Shown piece by piece: positions 19,201-60,600 of a stretch of DNA of 64,000 nucleotides; within the stretch, counting starts at the first letter, position 1, and every line of letters begins with the position of its first letter. The notes beneath the pieces were generated by a model that did not search any database, was not told the DNA's origin, and worked only from the letters and a program-made list of their open reading frames with translations. Location: the NCBI GenBank assembly GCA_000004985.1, contig GG738896.1; one strand, written 5' to 3'. The position numbers and the translations under genes are program-made. This DNA is from Naegleria gruberi. Lineage: Eukaryota.

Positions 19201-20580
19201 ATGATCTTTGCATTGCCACAATTTATCACAACAATTATTTCAGTTTGCTTTACACTTGTTATGATTTCAATTGTCACTCCACTATTTCTAATTGTAGTTA
19301 TTCCTATCGCTCTTGTATTCTTTGTGGTCCAGGAGTATTATAGAGCTACATCACGTGAAATTAGAAGATTGGAATCCATTTCTAGAAGTCCAGCAATGTC
19401 ACATTTTAATTCCTGTTTGGAGGGTGTTAAAACCATTAAGGCTGCTCTTATTCATGAAAGTATTTACAAGGACAATTTTATGAAGATTGATTTTACAAAC
19501 AAACATTCATACGGAAGATTTCTAATCAATAGATGGTTAGGTGTTAGAATTCAATTAGTTGCACAATTAGTTATTTTTTTTACAGCATTATTTGCAATTA
19601 TTACGAAACACTTTCAACATAATAACGAAGCTCTTTTAGCACTGGTTATTACTTACTCCTTACAATTGAGTGATACTTTCACAGAGTTTGTTCGTTCATT
19701 TGTTGATTTGGAAAGTCATATGACTAGTGTAGAGCGAATCATTCATTACAGTTCAAATATTGAACAAGAGGCCCCTTACGAACTCGAAAGTGATCCAATT
19801 CCATCACAATGGCCTTCTCAAGGGCATGTTCAATTCAACTCTCTTTCTGCAAGATACAGAGATGATCTAGACCCAGTTTTGAATTCCATTCAACTGGAGA
19901 TTAAACCAGGAACAAAAATTGGAGTTGTTGGAAGAACAGGAAGTGGAAAGAGTACCTTGCTAATTTCCCTGTTTAGATTCATAGAAGCAAGTGAAGGAAA
20001 TATAACAATTGATGGAGTGGATATTTCACAAATTGGATTGAAAACTCTCAGAAAATCTCTTTTAATTATTCCACAAATCCCTATTCTATTCTCTGGTACC
20101 ATTCGATACAATCTAGATCCATTCAATGAATTTCAAGACCATGAAATTTGGAAAGCCTTAGAGAGAGTTCATATGAAAGAGAAAATTCAACAAATTGGAC
20201 TCTCTGGAAATGTAACAGAGAATGGCAGCAATTTCTCAATTGGAGAAAGACAATTACTTTCACTTTGTCGATGCATTTTGAGAAGAGCTAAAATAATCAT
20301 ATTTGACGAGTCAACAGCTTTTGTGGATCACAATAGTGATGAGATTGTGCAAAAAGTCATTAGAGAAGAGTTTAAGGAATCGACAATCATTACTGTTGCC
20401 CACAGATTGGATACCATTATTGATTCTGATATGGTTGCATTTATGCAGGATGGTGAAATAATTGAAATCGGTTCTCCAAAGGAATTATTATCTCAGCATG
20501 ATAGTAACTTTTCAAAATTAGTGAATGAAACAGGTAAAAACTATTCAGCACATTTGAAAAAGAAGGCGAATGATAACTGA
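16296..20580 (+). CDS. ABCC/MRP-type full ABC transporter (TMD1-NBD1-TMD2-NBD2, no TMD0), 2 exons, ~1412 aa
   Basis: ATG at 16296 (MAERTKNED..), then the MRP N-terminal motif (SWFSILFFIFVDPLLKVGFKK). Exon 1 ends at 17678 (..MSIV) at a GTAAGT donor. The 46-nt intron has acceptor ..ttattaag. Exon 2 starts at 17725 (GGSVTFISYAYFGGQLTISNMFTGL..), in frame with track ORF 17770..20580. NBD1 has Walker A GDTGSGKST; NBD2 has GRTGSGKSTL with signature LSGNVTENGSNFSIGERQLL and Walker B IIFDEST. Confidence 0.85.
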
Positions 20581-21152
20581 TAGATTTAAAATAAGATTCA
20601 GATTGAGTAAATATACTGTTGAATCCTTTTGAAGATTGTAATCTCCAACAGTACAGTCTTCTTATTGTTTTCCTGCATAAATTAATTGTTGATACGAGGA
20701 TTACCCTATCTTTTGCTATAGTATCATTAGATTCCATTTCAATGGTGATTGTCTTTCCTGTCAAGTAAAATCAAAGTTATTAACTATATATTGCATCATC
20801 ATCTACTTTCAAAATTGAGGAGTTAAAAAGTTGTTCTGTGGACCATTATCTTCTCATGTAGTATAGGAGGTATTTGTGAAGAAATTTCAGGTGGAAACTG
20901 ATTGTGGTATACAACATCATCGGATGGACAAAATGTTGTTGAGTAAATGGGAGTAAGCCAACAATAGCAGCCGGAGTGGAAGTACCACTGGATGAGATAT
21001 CTGGACTATTTCTTTCTTTTAGATTTGGGGTTGTTTGTGAGAGAATTATTTGGACTAATCTCAATACAAGGACCTGATGACGTTGCAGCAGCTGAAACTG
21101 TGGATACAGTAAGTTTTGTTTCCCTCTTAATGCAAATTTAGAACTGAAAAAA

Positions 21153-21524
21153 ATGAAGAAGCAAAACAACGACTTTAACATCGTGCCATCCATGTTGGTG
21201 CTTATTGTCTGTCGTGCTTTCACCAAAGACACCAATGACTTCACCTTACTAGCCAGCTCAACTATTGATCAACTATTGCTATCGTATAATAAAATAGGCA
21301 AACAATGGCCTCAAAAAATGGTACAATTTATTACCAACAGAACATTGAAAAACTTTACGTATTGGCGAGAGTTGTTCGTTGATGAAAATATTCAACCTTT
21401 AATACAATTTTTATTGAATCAAGAGGATGTTGATCAGGCAACTAAGGCTTCAATTTATAAACTTGTTAGAAAATATAAGTTATCCATTGGTGGTGATGAA
21501 TTTCTACCTAACACCAGTTTCTAG
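21153..21524 (+). CDS. Small hypothetical ORF (123 aa), possibly preceded by a short intron in its 5' leader
   Basis: An ATG-initiated ORF with a higher fraction of C-ending codons than the flanks. A GTAAGT...tttag intron-like element lies at ~21109-21141, immediately upstream. No homology was recognised. Confidence 0.25.
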   Translation: MKKQNNDFNIVPSMLVLIVCRAFTKDTNDFTLLASSTIDQLLLSYNKIGKQWPQKMVQFITNRTLKNFTYWRELFVDENIQPLIQFLLNQEDVDQATKASIYKLVRKYKLSIGGDEFLPNTSF

Positions 21525-22181
21525 ATTACAGCGATCACTATTCATGACAAATCAATAATTTGATGGGATTGTAAAGTATTTTAACATTTCCAATACGGTT
21601 TACAACATGACACTTATTTCAGAAGCATCTTTACAATATAATCAGCTAAATCTAACAAATGATATCATCAAGAGTCAATTATGATCTTCTTCATGCTTTA
21701 AATGTGATACTATTTCATGTGTTTCTGAACAATAGGGACCAGACACTTTGAATATTGTAATAGTTTCGGTTGGAATAGCTTTCAGATCACCAGTCGTCTA
21801 TTGAAAGAATGGAATCATCTTCTTGGCCACCTTTTTCAATACTTCCATTTCAGAGTTGGATCTATTTTTAAAGAAAGAAATATACCATAATGAAATGAAT
21901 GTTTTCAACAATCTGAAGCTAAGAGAGATTGTAAATCATTACTGAATTTGAGGCATGTAGTGTAATTCTAACATCACGATCAGCTCATTTCTCTGAAGTG
22001 TTGGTGGCGAAACTCCACCCATGCCTTTTTTACAAAAATTTCATTAAGAATTTGAATGGAACTTTGGTATAAGTTTTATCTGGTTCAAAACCATCAATTT
22101 TCGAATGGTCTTTTAGTACTCACAAATTAAACTATAACAAATTAAGAGATAGCTCATTATCTTAATTTTTATATCAACAAT

Positions 22182-22250
22182 GGCTACGGCCATATCACGA
22201 TGAATGCACCTCATCCCGTCCGATTTGAGAAGTTAAGCAGTAGTCTTTTT
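22182..22250 (+). pseudogene. Internally deleted 5S rRNA copy (5' ~58 nt plus 3' terminal GTAGTC and the T-run terminator)
   Basis: GGCTACGGCCATATCACGATGAATGCACCTCATCCCGTCCGATTTGAGAAGTTAAGCA is identical to the 5' part of the full 5S copy at 25621-25739(-). It then jumps to ..GTAGTCTTTTT, so ~55 nt of the middle (including the box C region) are missing. Confidence 0.6.
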
Positions 22251-22786
22251 GGGTTTTTTAACAATAGTTTGGAAACATTTTTAATAATTCTTGGTCAATT
22301 CTAATCTTTTTAAACAATTTTTAACTCTTACCACTCCATTTATCAAATAATTCAGTCTTGTAAAGCTTCCTTATTTGAATCTTTGTGACATGACGATTTT
22401 TTGATGATTTCAAAGGATTTAATTTGTCCACACTGTATCACGCTTGATCCTTTCTACAAAAAGTTGATCTTTCTAATGGAACTTCAGTAATTCTCTCAAT
22501 AACTTTCTTAATTTTCAAATACTCATTTTCATTTACAGTACTATGATTGAAATATTTCACTTTCGTTTACAAACAGTATCTTACCTGTCCAAATAGGATT
22601 ATCAGTTCAACTTTTAGAGTTTCCTGTAGGAAAGTTTAAAGGGTTAAACTTCTATAACGTTAAAATATAATAACTTTTTAACAATAAAATACTCAACTGA
22701 TAGTGGAATAGTTGCTTAGTATTGGCATTATTGAAATTCCATAAAAAAATATATTTAGCATTATGAAAGTAATTGAGATCTTAACT

Positions 22787-23899
22787 TTAATCAGCAAATC
22801 CTGAAGTACCTCCATAATCACCTCCTCCTCCTCCACCACCATAATCATATCCACCACCACCAGAGTAGTCTCCACCACCACCATATCCTCCAGAATAATC
22901 ATAACTTGGTGGCTCATACTTGTATGTTTCTTCAACAGTGGTTGTTGAATATCCTCCATATGGTTCACTTGTAGTAGATGGAGCGTAATAACTAGTTTCT
23001 TTTTGTCTTGTTGGTTGGTCGACCTTTGTAGATGGGGCTGTTGTCGACATTGGAACATCAACTCTTGGATGTGCTGAAACACTTGGTTTGTAAACTGAGC
23101 TAGTTCCCCAATTCTTCTTTAGGAAATAGATTGTGACAGCACCTATTAAAATTATTGCTATAACTCCTACTATAATTAATGGGATTCCAATAGCTTGAAA
23201 ATAAAAATCTGATTTCATACTAGTACCAAGTCCAATTATCTTAATTTCTGGTTTGAAATAAGAATTAGAATTTAATCCTGTCATGTTGAAAGTGGCCTTA
23301 TACTGATTGTCAATTGTCGAGACTTGACCATTGACACAAGTCAAATTATAGGATGAGATTGATGAATCAAATAGGATTGTGGTTGAAATGGATGAAATAA
23401 AGGAATTATCCTGATAGTGATATCTCCAAACAGTGTCTGTTGACTAGTTTTCTCATTGTAATGATTAATAAAATTGTAAACTTACAACTTCAAGATTTGG
23501 AATTAGGGAAAATGATATTCTGAATGAAAACTTGGTTAGTGCATTTGAGGGAGTGGCAGGACTCAAAGTCGAAACAATAAAATAGGATTCAGAACCACTT
23601 TCTAACTTGGAAGAAATCGAATAGGTTGAATCCGAAATAAATACCTTGATTGATAAAGGATCAACACTTGTTGCAATGTCACGTGGAATAGGTCTTCCAA
23701 TCCTTGAGTAACTTCCGTTAAAATTATATTCAAAGTCTTCAACAATGTTCATGGATGATCCTTTTTCCAAGAATTGAATATTCGAAACGATAGAAGAAAT
23801 GGAATATGATTTTTGAGCATGAATTGATGAAAGTTGATACAAAAGTATCATCAAGATAACAACAACCTTCATCATCCCACCATCCGTGTATTCCAACAT
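22787..23899 (-). CDS. Type I membrane glycoprotein: signal peptide, extracellular domain, one TM helix and a Gly/Tyr-rich cytoplasmic tail; 2 exons, ~356 aa
   Basis: Exon 1 is 23486-23899 (MLEYTDGGMMKVVVILMILLYQLSSIHA.., a signal peptide) and ends ..PNLEVV at a GTAAGT donor. The intron is 42 nt. Exon 2 is 22787-23443 and starts STDTVWRY.. in phase 0. The TM helix is GIPLIIVGVIAIILIGAVTIYFL; the tail is ..GGYGGGGDYSGGGGYDYGGGGGGGDYGG. Exon lengths are 414 and 657 nt, both divisible by 3. Confidence 0.6.
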
Positions 23900-24240
23900 T
23901 TTTTTTGATGTTCAAAAGTTTATTCAAGTTTATCCACAGCTCTGATAACTTGCTTTATGTGGGTACCTCGCAGTGGAATTGGTGAGACAATGTCCAAGTT
24001 TGTCCTAGCTGGAATCAGAGTGGAAAGGATCATGAAAAGAGATCAGTATCTTGGAAAGTTCAATGTGAAAACTGGTTGTTGGATTTAATCTGACATGTAT
24101 TGAAGAGCCACTATACGTTATGAATAATTGACTCAAAACTTCATTGGTGTTATTCTTTATCATTCCAATTTTAATATCATACCTGTCCATATTCTTATAA
24201 TCCTCGATAGAATTCTTGACAAAATGACACAAATTCCACC

Positions 24241-24291
24241 CAAGGTACAAGGTTTGATAACTTGGGTGACAAGGTACAAGGTTTGATAACT
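24241..24291. repeat. Short tandem direct repeat (22 bp x2 separated by 7 bp)
   Basis: caaggtacaaggtttgataact tgggtga caaggtacaaggtttgataact. Confidence 0.8.
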
Positions 24292-25620
24292 GATCTTTTT
24301 GAATTTCCTTATGACTATTGCAGTAAACGCCAAACTCAATTGCATTTCAGTAATTAATGGGATGAAATCATTGTGCAAAGTATGCTGTTGACCTGTTGAT
24401 AAAAAACTTGAAAGTTTTGGGAGTTTTTTCAATCTGTTGGCCAAGGTAGTGAAGAACTCTTTCATTTATGTACCTAAAATGCAAAGAAAGTTCCAAATAG
24501 ATCTGCATGTTCACATGATGAGTGCAAACATATTTTAAATGCTGCCAAAGGACATTTAAATTGTTTAAGTTTCTATTAATTATTAAAAAAATTAAGGTAC
24601 CAATCTGCATGTTCACAAATCCCCCATTCACAAACCATGGCTGGTAAGGAATGCAGCAATCATCTATGAACGAGGAAACCTACAGCGAAGCATGTTTCCA
24701 GTTCGATATCATGCTCAAGATATGTGACTACAGAGTCTTCATCTTGGTTAACCTCAAAGGTCAGATTGACTCAAAAAAGTCGAGTTTATGTATTCCTACA
24801 GAAAAGATCCTGTAGAAGTACAGTCAATGGTTTTATCAAGTTTCATTTGTGAGGTTTGTGATATTGGTTTTGAATGTGTGAAAAGTGAGGTTAAAAAATT
24901 GTGGTACTTTTATGTGAAAAATATAAATTTCGATTCAAGAAAATAATTGAATGTTGATGGCTTCAAGATCAGCTCACAATTTTTAAGAACTTCCTCCTGA
25001 AAGTTGTAAGAAACAACTAATTAAGTGAAGAATTTCCTCATTCCTTGCACAAATACTATTATAATCTGTGAAATGACAAAAAGACAGGTTCCTAATTGAG
25101 ATGAGGTGATATTGATCCTCCCTATGAACTTGTTGATCAAATGAAAATTACATTCATGAATGTTTGCTTCAAAAGTTGAAAGTGGCATTTCCTAAAATAT
25201 AAATAGAAAGAGAGCTGGCTTGAATGTGACAAAATTGTCTCTTGTTCAATTAAAAAAAAAGAAACCTCCTGCAATGAATCTTCAGTCGAGTATTTTCATA
25301 GATTCATTGAGCCCTCTTGTCCAATCAAATCGTTCTAGAAAGAGTGGCGGAGGGCTGATAATTAATGTAGAGGGAGGAAATCCCTGATTGTAACCAAGTA
25401 TTTGCAGTAATGTGAATCCACAGCAGTTAAAAGAGTCTCCTTAATAGTAAACAACAACCCGAACAATTTGGATAAGATTGAATTTACAAGTTTTTCAATA
25501 AAGTTCTTTAAATTGTCAAATGATTTGTATTTAATTTTCTTCAATGTTTGTACATTTCCATTTCAATATTCTCTACATTTCAATATTTAAAGCTGTAAAA
25601 ACAATAAGGTGAAATTAAAA

Positions 25621-25739
25621 AGACTACAGCTTCACAGGTTCCCAAGTTGTCTCCAACCTCAGTACTGATGTGGCTCGACGATGCTTAACTTCTCAAATCG
25701 GACGGGATGAGGTGCATTCATCGTGATATGGCCGTAGCC
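25621..25739 (-). rRNA. 5S ribosomal RNA gene (full length, ~119 nt) with a downstream T-run terminator
   Basis: The reverse complement reads GGCTACGGCCATATCACGATGAATGCACCTCATCCCGTCCGATTTGAGAAGTTAAGCATCGTCGAGCCACATCAGTACTGAGGTTGGAGACAACTTGGGAACCTGTGAAGCTGTAGTCT, followed by TTTTT. This carries the conserved 5S motifs (..CCCGTCCGAT.TGAGAAGTTAAGC..AGTACTG.GG.TGGGAGAC..TGGGAA..). The 5'/3' ends pair as helix I (GGCUAC/GUAGUC). Confidence 0.8.
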
Positions 25740-26014
25740 ATTCACTACTTCAAAATGTATAATTTCAATGTACCTTCCATAACAGTTCATCCTTGCAAAA
25801 TCCTTAGTACCTTATTCAGACCAAAAACTTCAATCAACAAGAAGGTTATTCCAGTTGACAATTTCTGACTTAATGAATTGAACAATTCAATGTTGACTGT
25901 ATTTTCCTTTCCAAACAAAGACTCAATTATTCCATATTTGCACTGATATCGGGAGATTAAATCTGGTAATGTAATTCTTCATGCAACATCATCAGCACAA
26001 CGTTACCTGTTCAT

Positions 26015-40237: not shown

Positions 40238-40310
40238 GCCGACATAGCTCAGTTGGGAGAGCGTAAGACTGAAGATCTTAAGGTCCCTGGTTCGATCCCT
40301 GGTGTCGGCA
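40238..40310 (+). tRNA. tRNA-Phe (anticodon GAA), 73 nt, no encoded CCA
   Basis: GCCGACA-TA-GCTC-AGTTGGGA-GAGC-G-TAAGA-CTGAAGA-TCTTA-AGGTC-CCTGG-TTCGATC-CCTGG-TGTCGGC-A. The acceptor, D and anticodon stems pair perfectly. The anticodon loop CUGAAGA gives GAA. The sequence is close to other eukaryotic tRNA-Phe, with one T-T mismatch in the T-stem. It is followed by a T5 Pol III terminator. Confidence 0.85.
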
Positions 40311-51603: not shown

Positions 51604-54600
51604 ATGTCATCGTTATTTGAGGGCTTTCTCCTCAACAACACAACAAGGAGGAAACTGTTGTCATCAACAACATCTCTTCTCTTCTTCCTACTCTTGTGCA
51701 TTACATTCTTCTTTTCAACAACGTGCCTTGTTGATGGTGAAAGAATAGATTTTTTTCCATCTACTATAGTAAGCTATGGTGACCAATCTTTTTGCTCTTC
51801 CATGTCCAGTAATTCCTATGTAAGTTTTAAAGAAGGATTTTCTTGTTATTAATCGGACTTTATGGTTTTTCCCTCCAAAATTTATGATTGTCTTGACAAT
51901 GAATTTGAAAAAATGTGTTGATATTAATTTTATTTGGCTTGCTATCATTGGATTTTCTCTGATCATGTGAACAATATGATGATAAATAATAATATTACTT
52001 TCGGAATGGTATAGAAATCATTTAAAAATCCAGTTTCATATCCAACACCTGGATGGCAATTATTATATTTCCAAGGATTTAATTGCCCAAAGAATGGAGT
52101 TCCTGAAGGAATTAGTGATCGTAGTTATGGACAATTGCGTGTTGGATATAATCACATTATTGCTTTTCAAGTGAAAAGTAATAATGGAACACAAAAATTA
52201 AATATTGTAGGAAAAGGTGATAATACAGTTGGTCAATTAGCTATTGATAGATATATTTCTGGTGGAGTCAGATATTTTGCCAATATTACATTTGAAATTA
52301 ACTGGGGAGAGATGGTTAGATTAGTACAAATTGAAGATTTAATAACATCAAGAACTATTGCAAATAATCAAGATGTTGCTAAACTTCAAACTTATGATGC
52401 TTGGGATTCTAATCTTTATTTTGATAATATTAAGGGACACTATTTCCCTGATAATATTATTATTCAAGATATTAATACTTGTTATTTAAATACTTTTATA
52501 ATTTTAAAGAATCAAGAAATTTATGGAACTGGTTCAAATATTTACAAAAGTTTAAGTTTATCAAACGAAAATAGCAAAAGTAACTCTCCTATAAGATTAA
52601 CAATTTTGGAAAATTTTTTAAAATCACAAAGTGATTGGATTGATCAACTTTATTGTGGTTATTCATCTGTTTTTATTAAAACAAAAGCTAATAGAATTAT
52701 TGTATTTGGTAGAAATGATGTAAATCAATTAGGTCTTGGATCTGAATTTAGAGCAAATTCAATTACTCCAACAATTCATCCATTTTTAACATATTATTCA
52801 CAAAATATTGCAAATCTTGATACTATTTCATTTGGTTTAAATTTTACTTTAATTTCATTCAAAGATGGTTCAGTTTATTGTGCTGGTTTAAATAATCACC
52901 ATCAATGTGGTCTTGGTATTAATGAATATACAATTTCAAATTTTGTTCAAGTACCAATACCAGAAAAGATTACAAAAATATCAACAACAGCATATGCATC
53001 ATTTTTTGGTATTGAAACTGGTGAAATATTATCTTCAGGATGGAATTTAGGTTTTATTTTAGGACAAAATATTACTGATGAAAATTATGTTTCATCTACT
53101 CCAGTTAAAATTGAAAATTTAATTTCTCCAAATGATTATCAACTTTCAAAAGGTTTTCAATTATTTCATATAACTTATCAAAATGCAACATCAACTATGG
53201 CATGGGGATCAAATCAATTTTATAGTTCTGGTATACTTTATCAGGGTACTGGAACAGCTGCTTATCCAACTATTTTAGCATTGGGCAATGTGGAACGTGC
53301 TGTTTTAGAATCTATTGCAAATCCATCTGAATGTATTTTAGTTGGTGGTCATGCTGCTGCTAATGGTTGTTCCAATAGTTTATTACAAAGAATTAATTTA
53401 AAAACAGGATTTAATACTACATTTGGTGAATTTCGTTCATATTGCAGTAATTTTGGTACTTTTAATTATTCTACAGAAGTTTGTTCATGTGATGAAAAAC
53501 ATTATGGATATTCATGTCATTTAATCAAACCAGAATTTTTAGGAAATTGTAACCAATCAAGTTTAGAAAATTTTGCTATTGCTCCAAATACATGTTATTG
53601 TGGTGGAGAAGGTTTTTATGGAACATCTTGTGAAAATAAGGCACCTCCTAGATCTGTTTACAGTTTTACTAGATCTTTAAATATTCAAAAATTTACTCTA
53701 AAAAATAAGATGTTTGATTTTGGTTATTTAATAAGTGGTCAATCACATACATTTTTAAAATCTCAATTGAATAATAATAGAGTTTATGTATTTGGTAATG
53801 GATTGAATACAAATGATAAATATGGAATTGGTTTGGCTAGTAATAATATGATAAGTGATACTATTCAAATTTCAACATTATTTGAAAGATTATCAAAGAA
53901 ATTAACTTCTTCAATAAGAAATATTTATCCAATGAAAATTCAATCAGTTGCATTATTTAGTAATGGAGATATTTATAAGACTTTAAATAATTCAGATTTT
54001 GAAATTATTGCAAGTAATGTTAAATATTTAACATGTTCAGATATTACATGTTTTTTTATTACTAATGATAAGAATGTTTATGGTATTTTTGATAATCAAT
54101 ATAATCAACTTGGTTTAACTGATTTTGCAACAAGACAAAAAGTTTATGAATCTCAACCTGTTTTAGTATCACTTTTAAATAATAATTATCATAAGGAGAT
54201 TGTTAATATTTATCCTTCAAATTATTTTACATTATTTGTTAATCAATTTGGTAATTTATTTGGTATTGGTAAAAATACAGAATATCAATTAGGTATTGGA
54301 CATAATTTAAATATTGATAAGTTTATTATTCCATTAATAATTGAAAAACCTGTTTCACATGTTATTGTTACAGAATCTATTACATATTTTAAAGAATTAA
54401 ATTCTGTTTGGAAAACAATGGGTAAAGATATTTTAAATATTGCTCCAATTTCTCAATATTTAATTTATCCAACAGTAATAACATCTTTACAAGAACAAGA
54501 AAATATTTATAGAGCTAAAGGTGATATTATTATTACTCAAACAACAACTAAATTTAGACAATTAACACTTAATCAAGACCTTTCATATGGTCAAGAAAAA

Positions 54601-57600
54601 ATTATTGATGTTAATATTATGGGAGATGATATTATTTTAGTTACAATTCCAAGTAATTTTAATTCTATACTTTGTTATAATGGTTATTTAGATATTACTG
54701 GTACTTCATGCATTTGTGATAAAGGTTTTAGAGGAATTGATTGTAATTCTTATTTATGTGATAGAGTAACATGTAATTCATGTATTGGACCAAATATATG
54801 TTCTAAAAATCAATCTACAACAACAAATGAATTGAGATTATTCTCAAAAAATTATGGAATGATACAATCAAAGTTTAATGTTAAACATCATACTATTGGT
54901 GATAATTTTGCTATATTTATAGATTATGATGGTGAAACTAAATTTATTGGTGATAATTTTTATGGTGAATTAGGAATGGGTGGTTATTCTTCAATTAGTA
55001 TTAGTACCTCAAATTTACAACTTTTAACAAATAATATTTTACTTTTACCAATTTATTTAGCTAATGAAAATGTTAAATCAATTACATCTGGCAATAATTT
55101 TATTATTGTTTTAACAGAATCAGGTAATTTATTCTCTGTTGGTGATAATAGATTTGGTCAATTAGGTCAAAATGATACTATTAGTAGATATTTTTTAACT
55201 AAAATAGAAAGTACAATAACTTTTACAAGTGTAACTTGTAATTCTTTTCATTGTATTGCCTTAGGATCAAACAACAAATATTATGGTTGGGGAGATAACA
55301 CATTTGGTCAATTATGTTTAGATTCAACAACTAAAAAGGTTGTTTACACACCTTCACAAATTATATTTGATGTTATTATAGATGTTGTATCTACTTCAAT
55401 TATGTCAATTGGTCAAAACTCTTCAATATTTTATAGTAATAGTGGAGATGTGATTGCTTGTGGTAAAATAACAGTACCATCAAATTATGCTGATAAATCA
55501 GTAAGACAAAGAGTTTTACCAAATTTCAATATTGATTTACAAGCTATGGAACAAATACCAAGAAAATTCTATACCGATTTATGTTTAAAAAATTCTAATG
55601 AAGAATATTACTGTTTAGGTGAAAACAAATTTGGTACTCTAGGTTTTGGTCATGCTTTACCTCTTTATGGAATTTTTTTATCAAAACATTTTGGTGTTGA
55701 TGGAGGATTATTTTTCCATACTCACACTAATAAGATTAATTTCTATTATTCTAAAAACAAAATTTTAAATTATTTTGGTAATGGTGATTTATTGAATGAT
55801 ATCAACAATATGAATCCAGCAAGACAAACAAATGTTTTTCAATCAATTGGTAAATTTAGTTTCATAACATCAAATGAGAAATTTGGTTATATAATTACAA
55901 ATACTAGCAATTGTTTTAATAGAGGATATTTTTCTAATGGAATTTGTACTTGTAATAATATTAAATATTTAGGTGATGAATGTCAAACAAATACTAACAT
56001 TCCACAAGGTACAACTTCTCAATTCCAAATAATTGATACTTTAGGTAATAATTTTAATTTTACTAATAAGTTTGGAAGTATGTCAAAAATTGAAACATTT
56101 GGTAATTTACCATTTGGTTTTAATAATACTAGAAATAATTTAAGAGTTGTTAGTACCTTTAATTTGGCATTAAATCAATCCACTTCTCAACTTGCACTCA
56201 TTTTTGCTATTGATAATTATGCTAATTTAAACGTTGACATTCAATTTCCAAATAGTGGGAAAATTAGTAAACTTCAAACAAGATTGGAGGAAGGATCTGA
56301 TTACATTTATCATACAATTACTACTGATAATATAGATACTAATGCAATTATTCAAGTAACATATACAACAAATAATTCAGTAATTTTAGATAGTGATATG
56401 AAGAACCAATTTCTTAAAGTTTATACAAGAAATGAAAAAAATAATATTATTCCTATTGGATTGAAATCTAGCTCTGAATTATTATCTGAAGTACTTGCAA
56501 GGTTGAATTTCCTTTTTTCTATTAATGGTCCACATACTGCAGAAATTTCCTCTATTGAAGAATTTCCATGTGATCTAGATGGTAATAATAATGTGATAGG
56601 TCTCAGATTAGATGGAAATTTTTTCAATTATACATTTTATCCAATTCTAAAAGATGAATCTTTCCGTACTTTAAAGAACTTTTACAGCTCAAAAATTTCA
56701 TCAATTAGATATCCTATTCATGAAACATTTAATTTTGCAGAAAGTGATATTAGTCTCATTAATTTATCTAATAATAATAATCTTGAACAATCTGCAGGTT
56801 ATTATGATTTATCACCAGTTAAAAGAACAAATATTTTAATTAATGTTTCAAAATCAAAGATTTGTGATATTCCATTTGCTGATTTATTTATTAATCCTTC
56901 TAAATATAATTTTACAAATACTAATATGTATTGTATGAAACCAATTTTTGATAATTCTTGGTGTAAACCATTAAGTTTTAGAGAAAGTACTTTATACTTG
57001 ACTCAATTTTTTGTTTCTACAAAATTAAGTATTCCACTTGCACTTTGTGACTCATGTTCTATTTTAAATTGTTTTGATTTTTTAACTCAAAATACTTCTA
57101 GATTATCCTATTATTTTGTTTACCCAGATAATAATAAGATTATTTCTAATAATTTTAATATATTTGAAACAAGAAAGGATGTAAATGTTGATTTATTATT
57201 CAATGAATTTAATGAAAATAATTTCCTTAATTTTGATTATATTAATATGGGTATTATTTATAAATATGATTCTCCTATTGGAATACAAGAATTAAAAGGA
57301 ACTATCAAATTACAATATTTGAAATATTTACAAAGTTTCAATTTTACACCTATTGTACTTGCTAGAAATAGTGATAATATTGTTACAATTAAAAGTGAAA
57401 ATATGAAAGATTTCATAAAATATAATCAAGTTTATTGTAAAACAAGAATTAGTGAAGAAATAATTACTTTGGATGACAATGATAAATCAACTTCCTATTG
57501 TAATATTAGAACTGGTATTGAATATAATCAAAATATAACAGTTCAATTAATGGCTTACCCTATATCAGGAAATAATCCTTTTAAAATTGGAGAATTTAAT

Positions 57601-60600
57601 GTTTATGTTTTAAATATAACACTTATTCCAAATATTATCAATAAGTATTCTACAAAATATCCACAATTAATATTTATTAATTCTGATTTTACAACAGGAA
57701 GCTTTTTATCAAATTCTAAATTAGAATTTATGGAAAATGGTGAAACTGTTTATAAGATTGATCAACTAAAAATTAGTTATTTCAATACTTTATCCATTAC
57801 TGCAGATATTTATAAACAAAATCTTGACATGTATTTAGATAATGTAAATTTAGGATATTTTACTTCTCAAATTGTTTATAAACAAGTCAATTTAGAAAAA
57901 ATTATTCCATCCTTAAGTTTTAATACTGAAGAGATGCCTACAATTTATTTAGATAGAGAAATTTATTCAAATATTCATTCAAATATTCAGTATAGATGTT
58001 TAGATACTTTAACAAATACTTCATATTCTGCTCAATACTTAAATTCTAGAATAATATGTAATATTAATAATTTACCTACAAATAATGTAAAATTATTAGA
58101 TTTAATTGTTCAAATAAGAATTTATTCATTTAATGATAATGAATGGTTTACATATAGTAGTAATAGTGTTAAGTTTTATCATTTAATTTCTAATATGAAT
58201 ATTTCTTTAGCAGAAGGATCACAAACCTTTTCAAAATGTCATTATTTATCTTCTAGTACAACAGGTTTCACTCCAAGAATTAAATTAAATGAAATTGTTT
58301 TACCTGAAAGTGAAACTTATAGATTTTCAATATGCCATTATAATAGGTTAAATGAAATTGTTACCTATAGATCTAATTATTATAGAGATAATTTATTTGA
58401 AGCATCAGGATTTACTTTATATCTTAAAAGTGGTTATTCTAATATTTATTTATGTGCTGACTCAATGATTGTATCAAAACCAGTTGTAGTTTTTGTTATT
58501 AATCAAACAGATTATGATTCCAAACCAATTTTTGGTTTTATTGGTTCTGATATTTGGTCTGGTTATATTTTCCATCATCAACCACTTTATTCTGATTCTC
58601 TCTTCAATTTAACCTATTCTTGTGCCTTATTTGGTGATGTTCAAAATTATACTGTTTATTCAACAGATTTAATTACAAACAAAATTGATAATTATTATGT
58701 AACAAGATGTATTTTCACTGGTTTAAATAATATTATCAAACAAGAGGCAGGTTTTTATTTTTCATTACTTGCAAAGAGAGGATCAGAAACTGTTCAATTA
58801 CCAGCTACTTTTATTAATTTCATTTATGGACCAAAACCTACAAATTATTCTACTCCATTTATTTCTCATATTCCATATTCTGGTTATATTTCAACAACTT
58901 TATTAACACAAGATCAGGATAGAGATTTATTTGTTTCTAAAAATCAAAATGGATTTTTTAGATTAACTCTCCCAATTGATTGTTTGTTATTTAAAGTTGG
59001 TGGTACTTATCCTATTGCATCTGCACCACTTGATACAACATCATCAACTCTAAAATGTGATTTAACTAAATATACAGTTACAAGCAGTGAACCATTCGAA
59101 ATATCATTAGGTTCACTTGTTACAGAATATTCTTATTTTGTAGAATTTACATCAAGAACTGTACATTTCACATATTTGAATAAGATAGAATTTAACTTTG
59201 AAGGCTATCCAATTTTAGAAACTGGAAAATCTATTCTTCTAAATTATTATACTAACAAACTTCCTCAATACAAACAAACCCAATTGAATGTTACTATGTC
59301 TGCATTAGGACAATACCCCATTATCAAGTCATGTGATTTTGAACTTACAGGATCTTGTATAGTAGATTATAATTTAACAATTCCAATTACTCCAGTTTTA
59401 CAAACTTACATACTTCAATTTTCATTTATTATTAATGAATTTTTATTGAAACAAACATTGAACATTGAAAATACATTGTTCAATAACAGATTTAATGTAA
59501 TGTACTATTCACCATTCCTCTTTGATTTTAAAACTGATTCAAGCATTTACAATTTCAAGTTACAAATTGATAATGGATTAAATCCTGATTTCAATTTTGA
59601 TCTTGATACTGATGGTATTAGAAGAAGCATTTTTTATGGTTTGAATAATGATAGTATAACAGAAGTTACTTGCTCTAGAATTAGTAATTATAGTACTAGT
59701 ATAGCATCTAATTTAGAAACAAGAATTGTATCAACATTTAAAGGAATTACATTTTCTGTTGATAAGAAACCATCAACTATTTACCTTAGAGAACTTTACA
59801 CTACACCAAATATTGTCTCTCAATCAATTCAAAAAACTATTAATATTACTCTTACTACAGATATTGCTATTCAAAAACCTCTAAAGAAGTATTATATTTC
59901 TTTATTAGATAATAAGTATGAATGTAGTATTGAATCAACATCTTTGATTTGTCCTGTTTTAATTACATATATTGGTAATCCTTTCTACAAGGAAGTTCTT
60001 AAAATTTTAGATGGTGATAATGTTGTAACAAGGATTGGTTTACCATTTATCCTATTCAAACCAATTTCTATTCGTGAAGTTAAACCAACACTTCTACTTC
60101 AAGATAATAACTCTGTTAATACTACAGTTTTAATGGAGCAAACAGTTTTTGAAGATTTAGGAACAGAATTTATATTTTCTTGTTCCATCGAAGATGGTAA
60201 CTTCTCAGCTATTGTTGGTGATTCTAACTCTGTTAGATGTAATTTCAATAACTTGAATACTGGAAGAAAGAGTGTAAAAATTTATCTTTCCTCTAATAAT
60301 CAATACAGATCCATCAAGGAATTATTATTAACTGATATTAATCCAGCAAAAGATTTTGAAGTTATTAAGAATCCAACCATAGCTCTTGATAATTCTATTG
60401 AGCAAAAAACTTTATTCTATACTTCTGAAACCTTTTCATTAACAACTCTTAATATTCTAGTTACAAATACTGAATTCACTTTGAATAATATCTTGTATAA
60501 CATTTCTACTGAAATTGGTTTTTATGGAAAAAACAGCTTTGTTGAAAGTACTACTTATTTGGGAAAATTTGATACATCATACAAATTCCAAGTATCATTT

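Follow-up and report, generated by a model that had tools for sequence, protein, structure and literature searches.

According to PMC5555474, which summarises Rooney & Ward (2005), the dispersed 5S rRNA genes of filamentous ascomycetes are reported to undergo birth-and-death evolution, with 18–83% of the sequences identified as pseudogenes. They resemble the 5S genes of Naegleria gruberi in forming a dispersed multicopy family in which some copies lack an intact coding sequence, and in both cases such copies are called pseudogenes because their secondary structure is destroyed. Ascomycete 5S pseudogenes are mostly end-truncated and often diverged, unlike the Naegleria copy described here, in which both termini remain, 54 nt are missing from the interior and identity to an intact gene is 100%. 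In the oocyte-type 5S genes of Xenopus laevis, a partial copy, also a pseudogene, lies beside each gene of the repeat unit. Both there and in Naegleria, the 5′ portion of a 5S gene has been copied close to an intact gene into an apparently non-functional sequence; however, the Xenopus copy is 3′-truncated and sits in direct orientation within a tandem repeat, whereas the Naegleria copy is internally deleted, inverted and 3.4 kb away. SINE3-type SINEs and Cassandra TRIMs likewise place 5S-related sequence outside bona fide 5S genes. These elements keep the 5S internal promoter and are present in many copies, whereas the Naegleria fragment has no internal promoter region, and a search of metagenome contigs gave no second copy of its junction.

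In Schizosaccharomyces, recombination between dispersed 5S genes has been inferred for a centromeric inversion and for the presence or absence of wtf31 (PMC10085805). Dispersed 5S genes serve there as short homology blocks flanking other genes, which is the mechanism that the original prediction proposed for the present locus, where an inverted 5S pair would mediate inversion of the segment that it brackets. The Schizosaccharomyces inference draws on comparison across species or strains and on full-length genes (PMC10085805), whereas in Naegleria 61 bp are shared, one partner is a fragment and one orientation is known.

For N. gruberi, 279 dispersed 5S loci on 117 scaffolds have been catalogued (PMC3369914 Table S1). 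From this table we computed 33 neighbour pairs separated by ≤5 kb, 27 of them by ≤3.5 kb, and 64 of the 279 copies have a neighbour within 5 kb. The commonest close arrangement is a pair 1.4–3.5 kb apart, and 15 entries are partial (<110 nt). An internal control region (ICR) and an upstream TATA box are reported for these genes, and no recognisable TFIIIA was found in this species (PMC3369914).

An intact 5S rRNA gene and an internally deleted copy

The window (the whole 64-kb stretch of N. gruberi DNA analysed here) contains a full-length 5S rRNA gene and, in inverted orientation to it, a copy with an internal deletion (Table 1). The window corresponds to scaffold_42 of this species, and its ligase ORF shows 100% identity to an N. 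gruberi protein. The sequence itself, the covariance model RF00001 and a repeat search agree with all the coordinates originally proposed for the pair. The minimum-energy fold of the intact gene is the canonical three-helix junction (−37.4 kcal/mol, z = −1.9).

Table 1 Features of the 5S rRNA pair and of the segment between its arms (nt, numbering within the 5S gene)
Feature	Position in window	Strand	Basis and details
Left arm of exact inverted repeat	22179-22239		Repeat search; AAT upstream + nt 1-58
Partial 5S copy	22182-22250	+	
Partial copy, 5′ block	22182-22239	+	5S nt 1-58; 100% identity to intact gene
Partial copy, 3′ block	22240-22250	+	nt 113-119 (GTAGTCT) + TTTT; 11/11 match to intact gene
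Two-exon gene	22787-23899	-	Gene model; exons 23899-23486 and 23410-22787; 75-nt GT..AG intron
U3 snoRNA gene	24599-24827	-	RF00012, 76.1 bits
Remainder of T5 terminator run of intact gene	25617-25620	-	Sequence
Intact 5S rRNA gene, 119 nt	25621-25739	-	RF00001, 97.1 bits, E=7e-20, model positions 1-120; entry R33487, scaffold_42 25622-25738 (PMC3369914 Table S1)
nt 59-112 of intact gene (54 nt missing from partial copy)	25628-25681	-	
AAGC, nt 108-111 of intact gene	25629-25632	-	
Right arm of exact inverted repeat	25682-25742		Repeat search
AAGC, nt 54-57 of intact gene	25683-25686	-	
Upstream TATA-like element TTGAAATTATA	25758-25768	-	-29 to -19 of intact gene

The partial copy retains, as had been proposed, the first 58 nt, the last 7 nt and the terminator, with nt 58 and nt 113 joined directly. 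It matches its intact neighbour at 69/69 positions and lacks nt 59–112, so that the deletion previously put at ~55 nt measures 54 nt. The 5′ block spans the 5′ strands of helices I and II, helix III and loop C; the 3′ block ends in a T5 run of the Pol III terminator type, and such a run lies directly 3′ of both copies. Lost with nt 59–112 are most of the 3′ strand of helix II (nt 59–65), all of helices IV and V and the first 3 nt of the 3′ strand of helix I; in the fold prediction, no other part of the gene is as strongly structured. The site of the copy falls between an ABCC-type transporter gene and the membrane-protein gene.

The 5S call is borne out by RF00001 for the intact gene (97.1 bits), but a search of 601 nt gave the partial copy 30.9 bits (E = 2e-4), under the gathering score of 38, in an alignment that used unrelated downstream bases to close helix I. 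The stretch is clearly 5S-derived, yet it is no 5S gene by Rfam's criterion. The three-way junction with helices I–V is gone, and the fold predicted for the mini-RNA (−11.7 kcal/mol, z = −0.19) is equalled by 79 of 200 shuffles. Judged by position against the standard eukaryotic ICR, from which the box positions were taken and whose role in Naegleria is presumed, the copy has lost the 3′ part of box A, the intermediate element and box C; the loss of box C had been foreseen. Its 5S derivation is unambiguous and both its coding sequence and its structure are disrupted, which places it among 5S pseudogenes, and it is not one of the 279 listed N. gruberi loci. The earlier description of it as an unusual pseudogene form stands insofar as losing an internal stretch while both ends remain is less common than the truncation reported for 5S pseudogenes elsewhere; of function there is no sign, with neither a conserved promoter nor a stable fold.

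We searched more widely for related forms. The junction 24-mer GATTTGAGAAGTTAAGCAGTAGTC has no match in metagenome contigs and hence gives no sign of a propagating mini-5S family. Across 14 metagenomic loci, every complete 5S gene (12/12) is 119 nt long without internal deletion, and the 5′ half of the Naegleria-type 5S has no match in viral and prokaryotic genome collections. No 5S and no other Rfam match is present at the locus of a 55%-identical ligase orthologue (L015); at such divergence, the positions of 5S genes are thus not conserved. A bacterial promoter and terminator scan gave nothing useful, its models being irrelevant to a eukaryote.

The two copies also differ upstream. Positions −29 to −19 of the intact gene carry the TATA-like 11-mer TTGAAATTATA, which occurs in exact form once in the window and recurs at the identical offset in another Naegleria locus, L005. 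The only part that L005 has in common with the window is a 151-nt unit, 92% identical and running from the T-run to −29, so we treat it as an independent locus. In a consensus built on two Naegleria-type genes only (the window's intact copy and that of L005), TTGAAATTATA appears to be a fixed-position part of a conserved Naegleria 5S unit. It is not present upstream of the partial copy. In-register similarity over 30 upstream nucleotides is 20/30 between the intact gene and L005 (P = 4e-5), 10/30 between the partial copy and L005 (P = 0.44) and 14/30 between the partial and intact copies (P = 0.05). Beyond −3 and past the T-run, the flanks of the two window copies are unrelated.

Origin of the partial copy

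Very probably, the partial copy is a dead, 5S-derived relic, that is, a non-functional pseudogene. On balance we prefer an origin as a promoter-less partial copy to an in-situ deletion of a working gene, and the two taken together, a dead relic that arose recently by promoter-less partial copying, make up a fairly probable account. Only transcribed sequence makes up the copy: the homology begins at −3 and ends with the T5 run. A once-complete gene in slow decay would hardly show a perfectly identical body next to upstream similarity at background level, which leaves a recent promoter-less partial copy as the most likely origin.

Such a copy would most likely have been made by repair synthesis or ectopic recombination with a 5S gene as template, perhaps the inverted neighbour; we rank RNA-templated copying below this route. 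During copying or soon afterwards, the 54-nt gap may have formed through slippage or a jump from one AAGC tetranucleotide to the other (nt 54–57 and 108–111), near the three-way junction; the first borders nt 59–112 and the second falls inside it. Clean AAGC-mediated slippage was considered and rejected: it predicts AAGC-T-GTAG, whereas the junction reads AAGC-A-GTAG, and we keep the tetranucleotides as near-microhomology only. To account for the A, either the parent had that base at nt 112, as the related locus L006 does, or one extra change took place, or the junction formed without microhomology. Because the intermediate element, box C and the upstream element are all absent, a partial copy of this kind is expected to be transcriptionally silent, given the presumed dependence on box C. 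If the site in a sister strain were empty, the locus would become a clean and datable heterolobosean case of a templated partial-copy insertion whose junctions show microhomology.

A possible but unlikely alternative is that a complete, functional 5S gene at 22.18 kb lost nt 59–112 in place, through replication slippage or end-joining between the AAGC motifs that flank the helix II/IV/V region. Such a deletion would explain why the copy still has its two ends and its T5 terminator, why its blocks keep their original order and orientation, and why AAGC is present at both borders. It would also fit a genome in which pairs 1.4–3.5 kb apart are the commonest close arrangement and 15 other entries are partial, as well as the marginal in-register upstream match between the partial and the intact copy (14/30, P = 0.05). 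It runs into difficulty over timing: after an old event the body should carry mutations, but it shows 0 changes in 69 nt, and after a recent one the promoter should still be in place, yet the conserved upstream element is missing and similarity to L005 is at background. Slippage, moreover, predicts a product one base different from the junction observed. Should many N. gruberi 5S copies prove to lack the 11-mer, in-situ deletion would become equally likely.

It is improbable that the sequence is a retroposed copy, inserted after 5S RNA had been reverse-transcribed aberrantly or with an internal skip. Homology limited to the transcribed region and ending in a U/T run, the absence of a promoter and a TSD-like AACAAT that abuts the 5′ end (22176–22181) and recurs at 22260–22265 would all suit this origin. 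A repeat of ≥6 nt abutting the element occurs in 2.3% of random placements, but the signal is weak, the test is post hoc and its P rises to 0.098 once 5 nt of slack are allowed, and nine unrelated bases (GGGTTTTTT) separate the T5 run from the second AACAAT. There is no A-rich tail, the identity takes in the AAT at −3 to −1, which precedes the mature 5′ end, and the junction search of metagenome contigs returned no further copies.

More improbable still is an assembly or cloning artefact, with the 54-nt gap made in a clone or in the consensus rather than in the organism. Strong structure is a known trigger of polymerase skipping, and the stretch missing here is where the structure of the gene is strongest. 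An independent assembly (L016, from sample ERZ929261, carrying P0122, a 96%-identical relative of the left-flank ORF) aligns to 19392–22027 with 95.9% identity; it ends 155 nt short of the partial copy and is silent on the deletion, although it confirms the left flank from an unrelated metagenome up to 22027. Collapse of a repeat, however, requires long direct repeats where AAGC alone is available, the published table holds 15 other partial 5S entries of the same assembly, and the missing promoter is a second, independent difference that no artefact explains.

The inverted pair and the segment between its arms

The arms of the inverted repeat are 61 nt long, 100% complementary and 3442 nt apart, so the segment has exact inverted repeats at both ends, as an invertible DNA segment does. 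A 29-mer from the 5S 5′ half has two exact occurrences in the window, where 100 shuffles give an expectation of 0, and the 5S 3′ domain occurs once. None of the four ORFs tested between the arms has a recombinase or other Pfam domain, which argues against a dedicated recombinase. This genome has 279 listed loci, 15 of them partial, and 33 neighbour pairs separated by ≤5 kb, so two 5S sequences at a spacing of 3.4 kb are routine. The segment is bracketed simply because two copies from a large, dispersed gene family lie on either side of it, and the proposal that the pair works as an inversion device is left unsupported.

Least probable of all are the functional readings, in which the 61-bp arms flip the 3.4-kb segment or the mini-gene is transcribed into an RNA of ~65 nt. 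Inversion between the arms is conceivable, since the repeat is exact and, in fission yeast, recombination between dispersed 5S genes has been inferred as the cause of an inversion and of a presence/absence polymorphism (PMC10085805), but it has no support at this locus. If it took place, the complete 5S 3′ half would move to the promoter-less left copy, the promoter-bearing right copy would be truncated, and the flipped segment would carry the U3 and membrane-protein genes. Arms of 61 bp are short for efficient homologous recombination, no recombinase or other domain turned up in the ORFs tested between them, dozens of similar neighbour pairs exist in the genome, and switching one of ~279 copies would have a negligible effect. 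A mini-RNA would be made by Pol III from the AT-rich upstream sequence to the T5 terminator, which is present, and would keep helix III and loop C, the region of 5S that binds ribosomal protein uL18/L5. Because TFIIIA is undetected and an upstream TATA box is reported (PMC3369914), transcription driven from upstream is conceivable; against it, the conserved upstream element is missing from the partial copy and the structure of the mini-RNA is not above chance.

The partial copy is, in our assessment, an ordinary pseudogene and no regulatory switch. It adds one unlisted, internally deleted fragment to the 279 catalogued N. gruberi 5S loci, which is of limited importance, and it is an example of how dead partial copies arise from dispersed families of Pol III genes. 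The analysis also yielded modestly useful by-products, namely the TTGAAATTATA element, a U3 gene near a 5S gene and a probable membrane-protein gene.

The membrane-protein gene proposed between the copies is recovered in our two-exon gene model, whose predicted 345-aa product has a signal peptide, one TM segment and a Gly/Tyr-rich cytoplasmic tail. It is a probable gene without annotation. Its protein has no Pfam match, and the sole relative found is an N. gruberi paralogue with 39% identity; by these comparisons it is a lineage-specific orphan.

A permissive Rfam scan of the bracketed segment returned nothing besides the U3 snoRNA gene, which the original prediction had overlooked. This gene lies on the same strand as the intact 5S gene, 793 nt downstream of it, and is followed by a T7 run. 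U3 thus sits ~0.8 kb from a 5S gene, with a Pol III-like T-run behind it.

A complete 5S rRNA gene and an inverted partial copy

The Rfam covariance model RF00001 (gathering score, 38 bits) matches the intact 5S rRNA gene over its full length (E=7e-20; see the table of features). Its nt 1–58 recur from 22182 on the opposite strand, where nt 113–119 (GTAGTCT) followed by TTTT directly abut nt 58, leaving a short copy without nt 59–112 (54 nt). The sequence thus bears out the original prediction of an inverted pair, one member full-length and the other internally deleted by ~55 nt while keeping the first 58 nt, the last 7 nt and the terminator. Box C of the internal control region, described as missing from the short copy, indeed falls by position within the deleted nucleotides, as does the intermediate element. 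A repeat search found that the 58 nt of gene and an upstream AAT form an inverted repeat whose arms are separated by 3442 nt, and flank comparison detected no homology between the two copies past -3 or past the T-run. A 29-mer of the 5′ half has exactly two matches in the 64 kb (0 expected from shuffles), and the 5S 3′ domain has one.

Coordinates and supporting evidence for features of the 5S pair and the bracketed segment
Feature	Position	Strand	Evidence or detail
Intact 5S rRNA gene	25621-25739	-	RF00001, 97.1 bits
Short copy, 5′ block (nt 1-58)	22182-22239	+	58/58 identity to intact gene
Inverted repeat arms	22179-22239 / 25682-25742		exact, 61 nt
Upstream 11-mer TTGAAATTATA	25758-25768; L005 (metagenome contig) 676-686	- (window)	same offset in both
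Two-exon membrane-protein gene	exons 23899-23486, 23410-22787	-	75-nt GT..AG intron
U3 snoRNA gene	24599-24827	-	RF00012, 76 bits

With the covariance model run on both loci, the 5S call holds for the intact gene, whereas the short copy scores 30.9 bits, with helix I closed only by unrelated downstream bases. Scoring below the gathering threshold, the short copy clearly derives from a 5S gene yet is not one. The intact gene is predicted to fold into the textbook three-helix junction; the predicted 68-nt RNA of the short copy (-11.7 kcal/mol, z=-0.19) folds no better than shuffled sequence. The short copy fails four of the five functional-5S features tested (covariance-model threshold, structure, internal promoter region and upstream element) and keeps only the terminator. 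It has the defining features of a pseudogene, and a functional interpretation of the pair is not supported.

The short copy adds a hitherto unlisted member to the well-known class of 5S pseudogenes. Dispersed 5S families regularly include truncated pseudogenes; among the 5S sequences of filamentous fungi, 18–83%, truncated copies included, have been called pseudogenes (Rooney & Ward 2005, as quoted in PMC5555474). The form had been considered unusual, and an internal gap between two retained termini is indeed seen less often, without implying any new biology.

The pair within the N. gruberi 5S family

In 2012, 279 putative 5S genes were catalogued in the N. gruberi JGI assembly; they are reported to be unlinked to the rDNA unit and to carry an upstream TATA box as well as an internal control region, and no TFIIIA was recognised in that study (PMC3369914). 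One entry of that list, scaffold_42 25622–25738, coincides with the intact gene, which evidently makes the window the initial 64 kb of scaffold_42. The adjoining ORF shows 100% identity to a long-chain fatty-acid-CoA ligase that Naegleria gruberi encodes on a 331,721-bp scaffold. Among the 279 entries, the short copy at 22182 is missing. Our re-analysis of the published table placed these on 117 scaffolds, with 33 adjacent pairs at most 5 kb apart (27 of them at most 3.5 kb), 64 of 279 copies having a listed neighbour within 5 kb, and 15 of 279 entries being shorter than 110 nt, that is, partial or degenerate. By these counts, partial 5S copies are not rare in the genome, and a 5S pair that encloses ordinary genes at a distance of 3.4 kb represents its commonest close arrangement.

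Inversion of the bracketed segment through the repeat, as originally proposed, would swap the 3′ halves, leaving the left, promoter-less site complete and the right, promoter-bearing site truncated. The mechanism is real in fission yeasts, where recombination between dispersed 5S genes has been invoked to explain a centromeric inversion and the presence/absence polymorphism of a wtf gene (PMC10085805). It is not supported here: the shared stretch is only 61 bp, no mark sets the pair apart from dozens of others, and altering one of about 279 copies would have a negligible effect. None of the four ORFs tested within the bracketed segment is recombinase-like.

A candidate upstream element and the origin of the short copy

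Scanning metagenomes with the Naegleria-type 5′ half yielded 14 loci, among which all 12 complete 5S genes are 119 nt long and free of internal deletions. The gene on L005 differs from the intact window gene at three positions only and shares the exact 11-mer TTGAAATTATA at -29 to -19. The only homology between L005 and the window is one block of 151 nt (92% identical) that extends from the T-run to -29, and the genes neighbouring the 5S differ. L005 is a non-orthologous, independent Naegleria locus. Because the loci share this one block amid different neighbours, the upstream element is, on the strength of these two genes, part of a conserved Naegleria 5S unit, and TTGAAATTATA is a candidate promoter element at a fixed position upstream of Naegleria 5S genes. 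It occurs once in the whole window and is not present at the short copy. Scored in register over the upstream 30 nt, the intact gene matches L005 at 20/30 positions (P=4e-5), the short copy matches L005 at 10/30 (P=0.44), and the short copy matches its intact neighbour at 14/30 (P=0.05), a count that includes the repeat's AAT.

The body of the short copy is identical to the functional gene (69/69), against background similarity upstream. We lean slightly towards its origin as a recent copy of part of the 5S transcribed region, made without the promoter; this is the simplest account, since slow decay would also have mutated the body. Copying may have occurred during repair or ectopic recombination templated by a 5S gene, for which the inverted neighbour at 3.4 kb is an obvious candidate, with AAT at -3 to -1 also common to both. 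The gap could reflect a jump or slippage, during copying or later, between AAGC sites at nt 54–57 and nt 108–111, which border it and flank the helix II/IV/V region near the three-way junction. The fit is imperfect, as a clean event predicts AAGC-T and the short copy has AAGC-A; A at nt 112 is seen in the related metagenomic gene L006. Both window copies carry T at nt 24 (22205 and 25716), where 12/12 metagenomic relatives have A; the T is either specific to N. gruberi or a variant common to these neighbours, and the latter case would point to the intact neighbour as template.

An in situ deletion within a formerly complete 5S gene is possible but rather less likely: a recent deletion should have left the promoter in place, and here it is missing beside an unmutated body. 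This reading would gain weight if many N. gruberi copies prove to lack TTGAAATTATA. An RNA-mediated copy is improbable. AACAAT abuts the 5′ end (22176–22181) and recurs at 22260–22265, a TSD-like but weak signal (P=0.023 to 0.098, post hoc), given that a repeat of at least 6 nt abuts the element at 2.3% of random placements, or 9.8% with slack; moreover, an A-tail is absent and nine unexplained bases separate the T-run from the second AACAAT. An artefact is likewise improbable, as collapse would require long direct repeats and an artefact leaves the missing promoter unexplained.

Genes of the bracketed segment and flanking features

The membrane-protein gene expected between the 5S copies was recovered as a two-exon model for a 345-aa product that has a signal peptide, a single TM segment and a tail rich in Gly and Tyr. 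This protein matches no Pfam domain, and the sole relative detected is a paralogue in N. gruberi (P0121, 39% identity). The gene is apparently absent from the public protein set, since no identical entry exists in a 5.8-billion-protein collection that includes other N. gruberi proteins; it is probably an unannotated member of a small lineage-specific family. The U3 snoRNA gene, overlooked in the original prediction, is the only further Rfam match within the segment; it shares the strand of the intact 5S gene and is located 793 nt downstream of it. A T7 run within about 8 nt after it would suit Pol III termination, by analogy with plant U3. The non-coding stretch from the membrane-protein gene to U3 contains a perfect 22-nt direct duplication, CAAGGTACAAGGTTTGATAACT (24241–24262 and 24270–24291; 29-nt period).

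On the left flank, metagenome locus L016 (1–2698; ENA ERZ929261, run ERR1078381) matches window 19392–22027, covering the ABC-transporter 3′ end and the left-flank ORF; its 95.9% identity indicates a very close Naegleria relative in that sample. This sole independent assembly of a close relative stops 155 nt before the short copy. Next to the intact 5S gene, the ligase coding sequence is divided over several ORFs, unlike its orthologue in ENA metagenome contig L015 (1–3829), which is called as a single uninterrupted 684-aa gene (55% identical) with a different upstream neighbour and no 5S nearby in that interval. Elsewhere in the window, a tRNA-Phe(GAA) gene at 40238–40310 (+; 67.9 bits) is another dispersed Pol III gene, and G+C content is 24–25% at 52001–60000 versus 30–35% in the rest.
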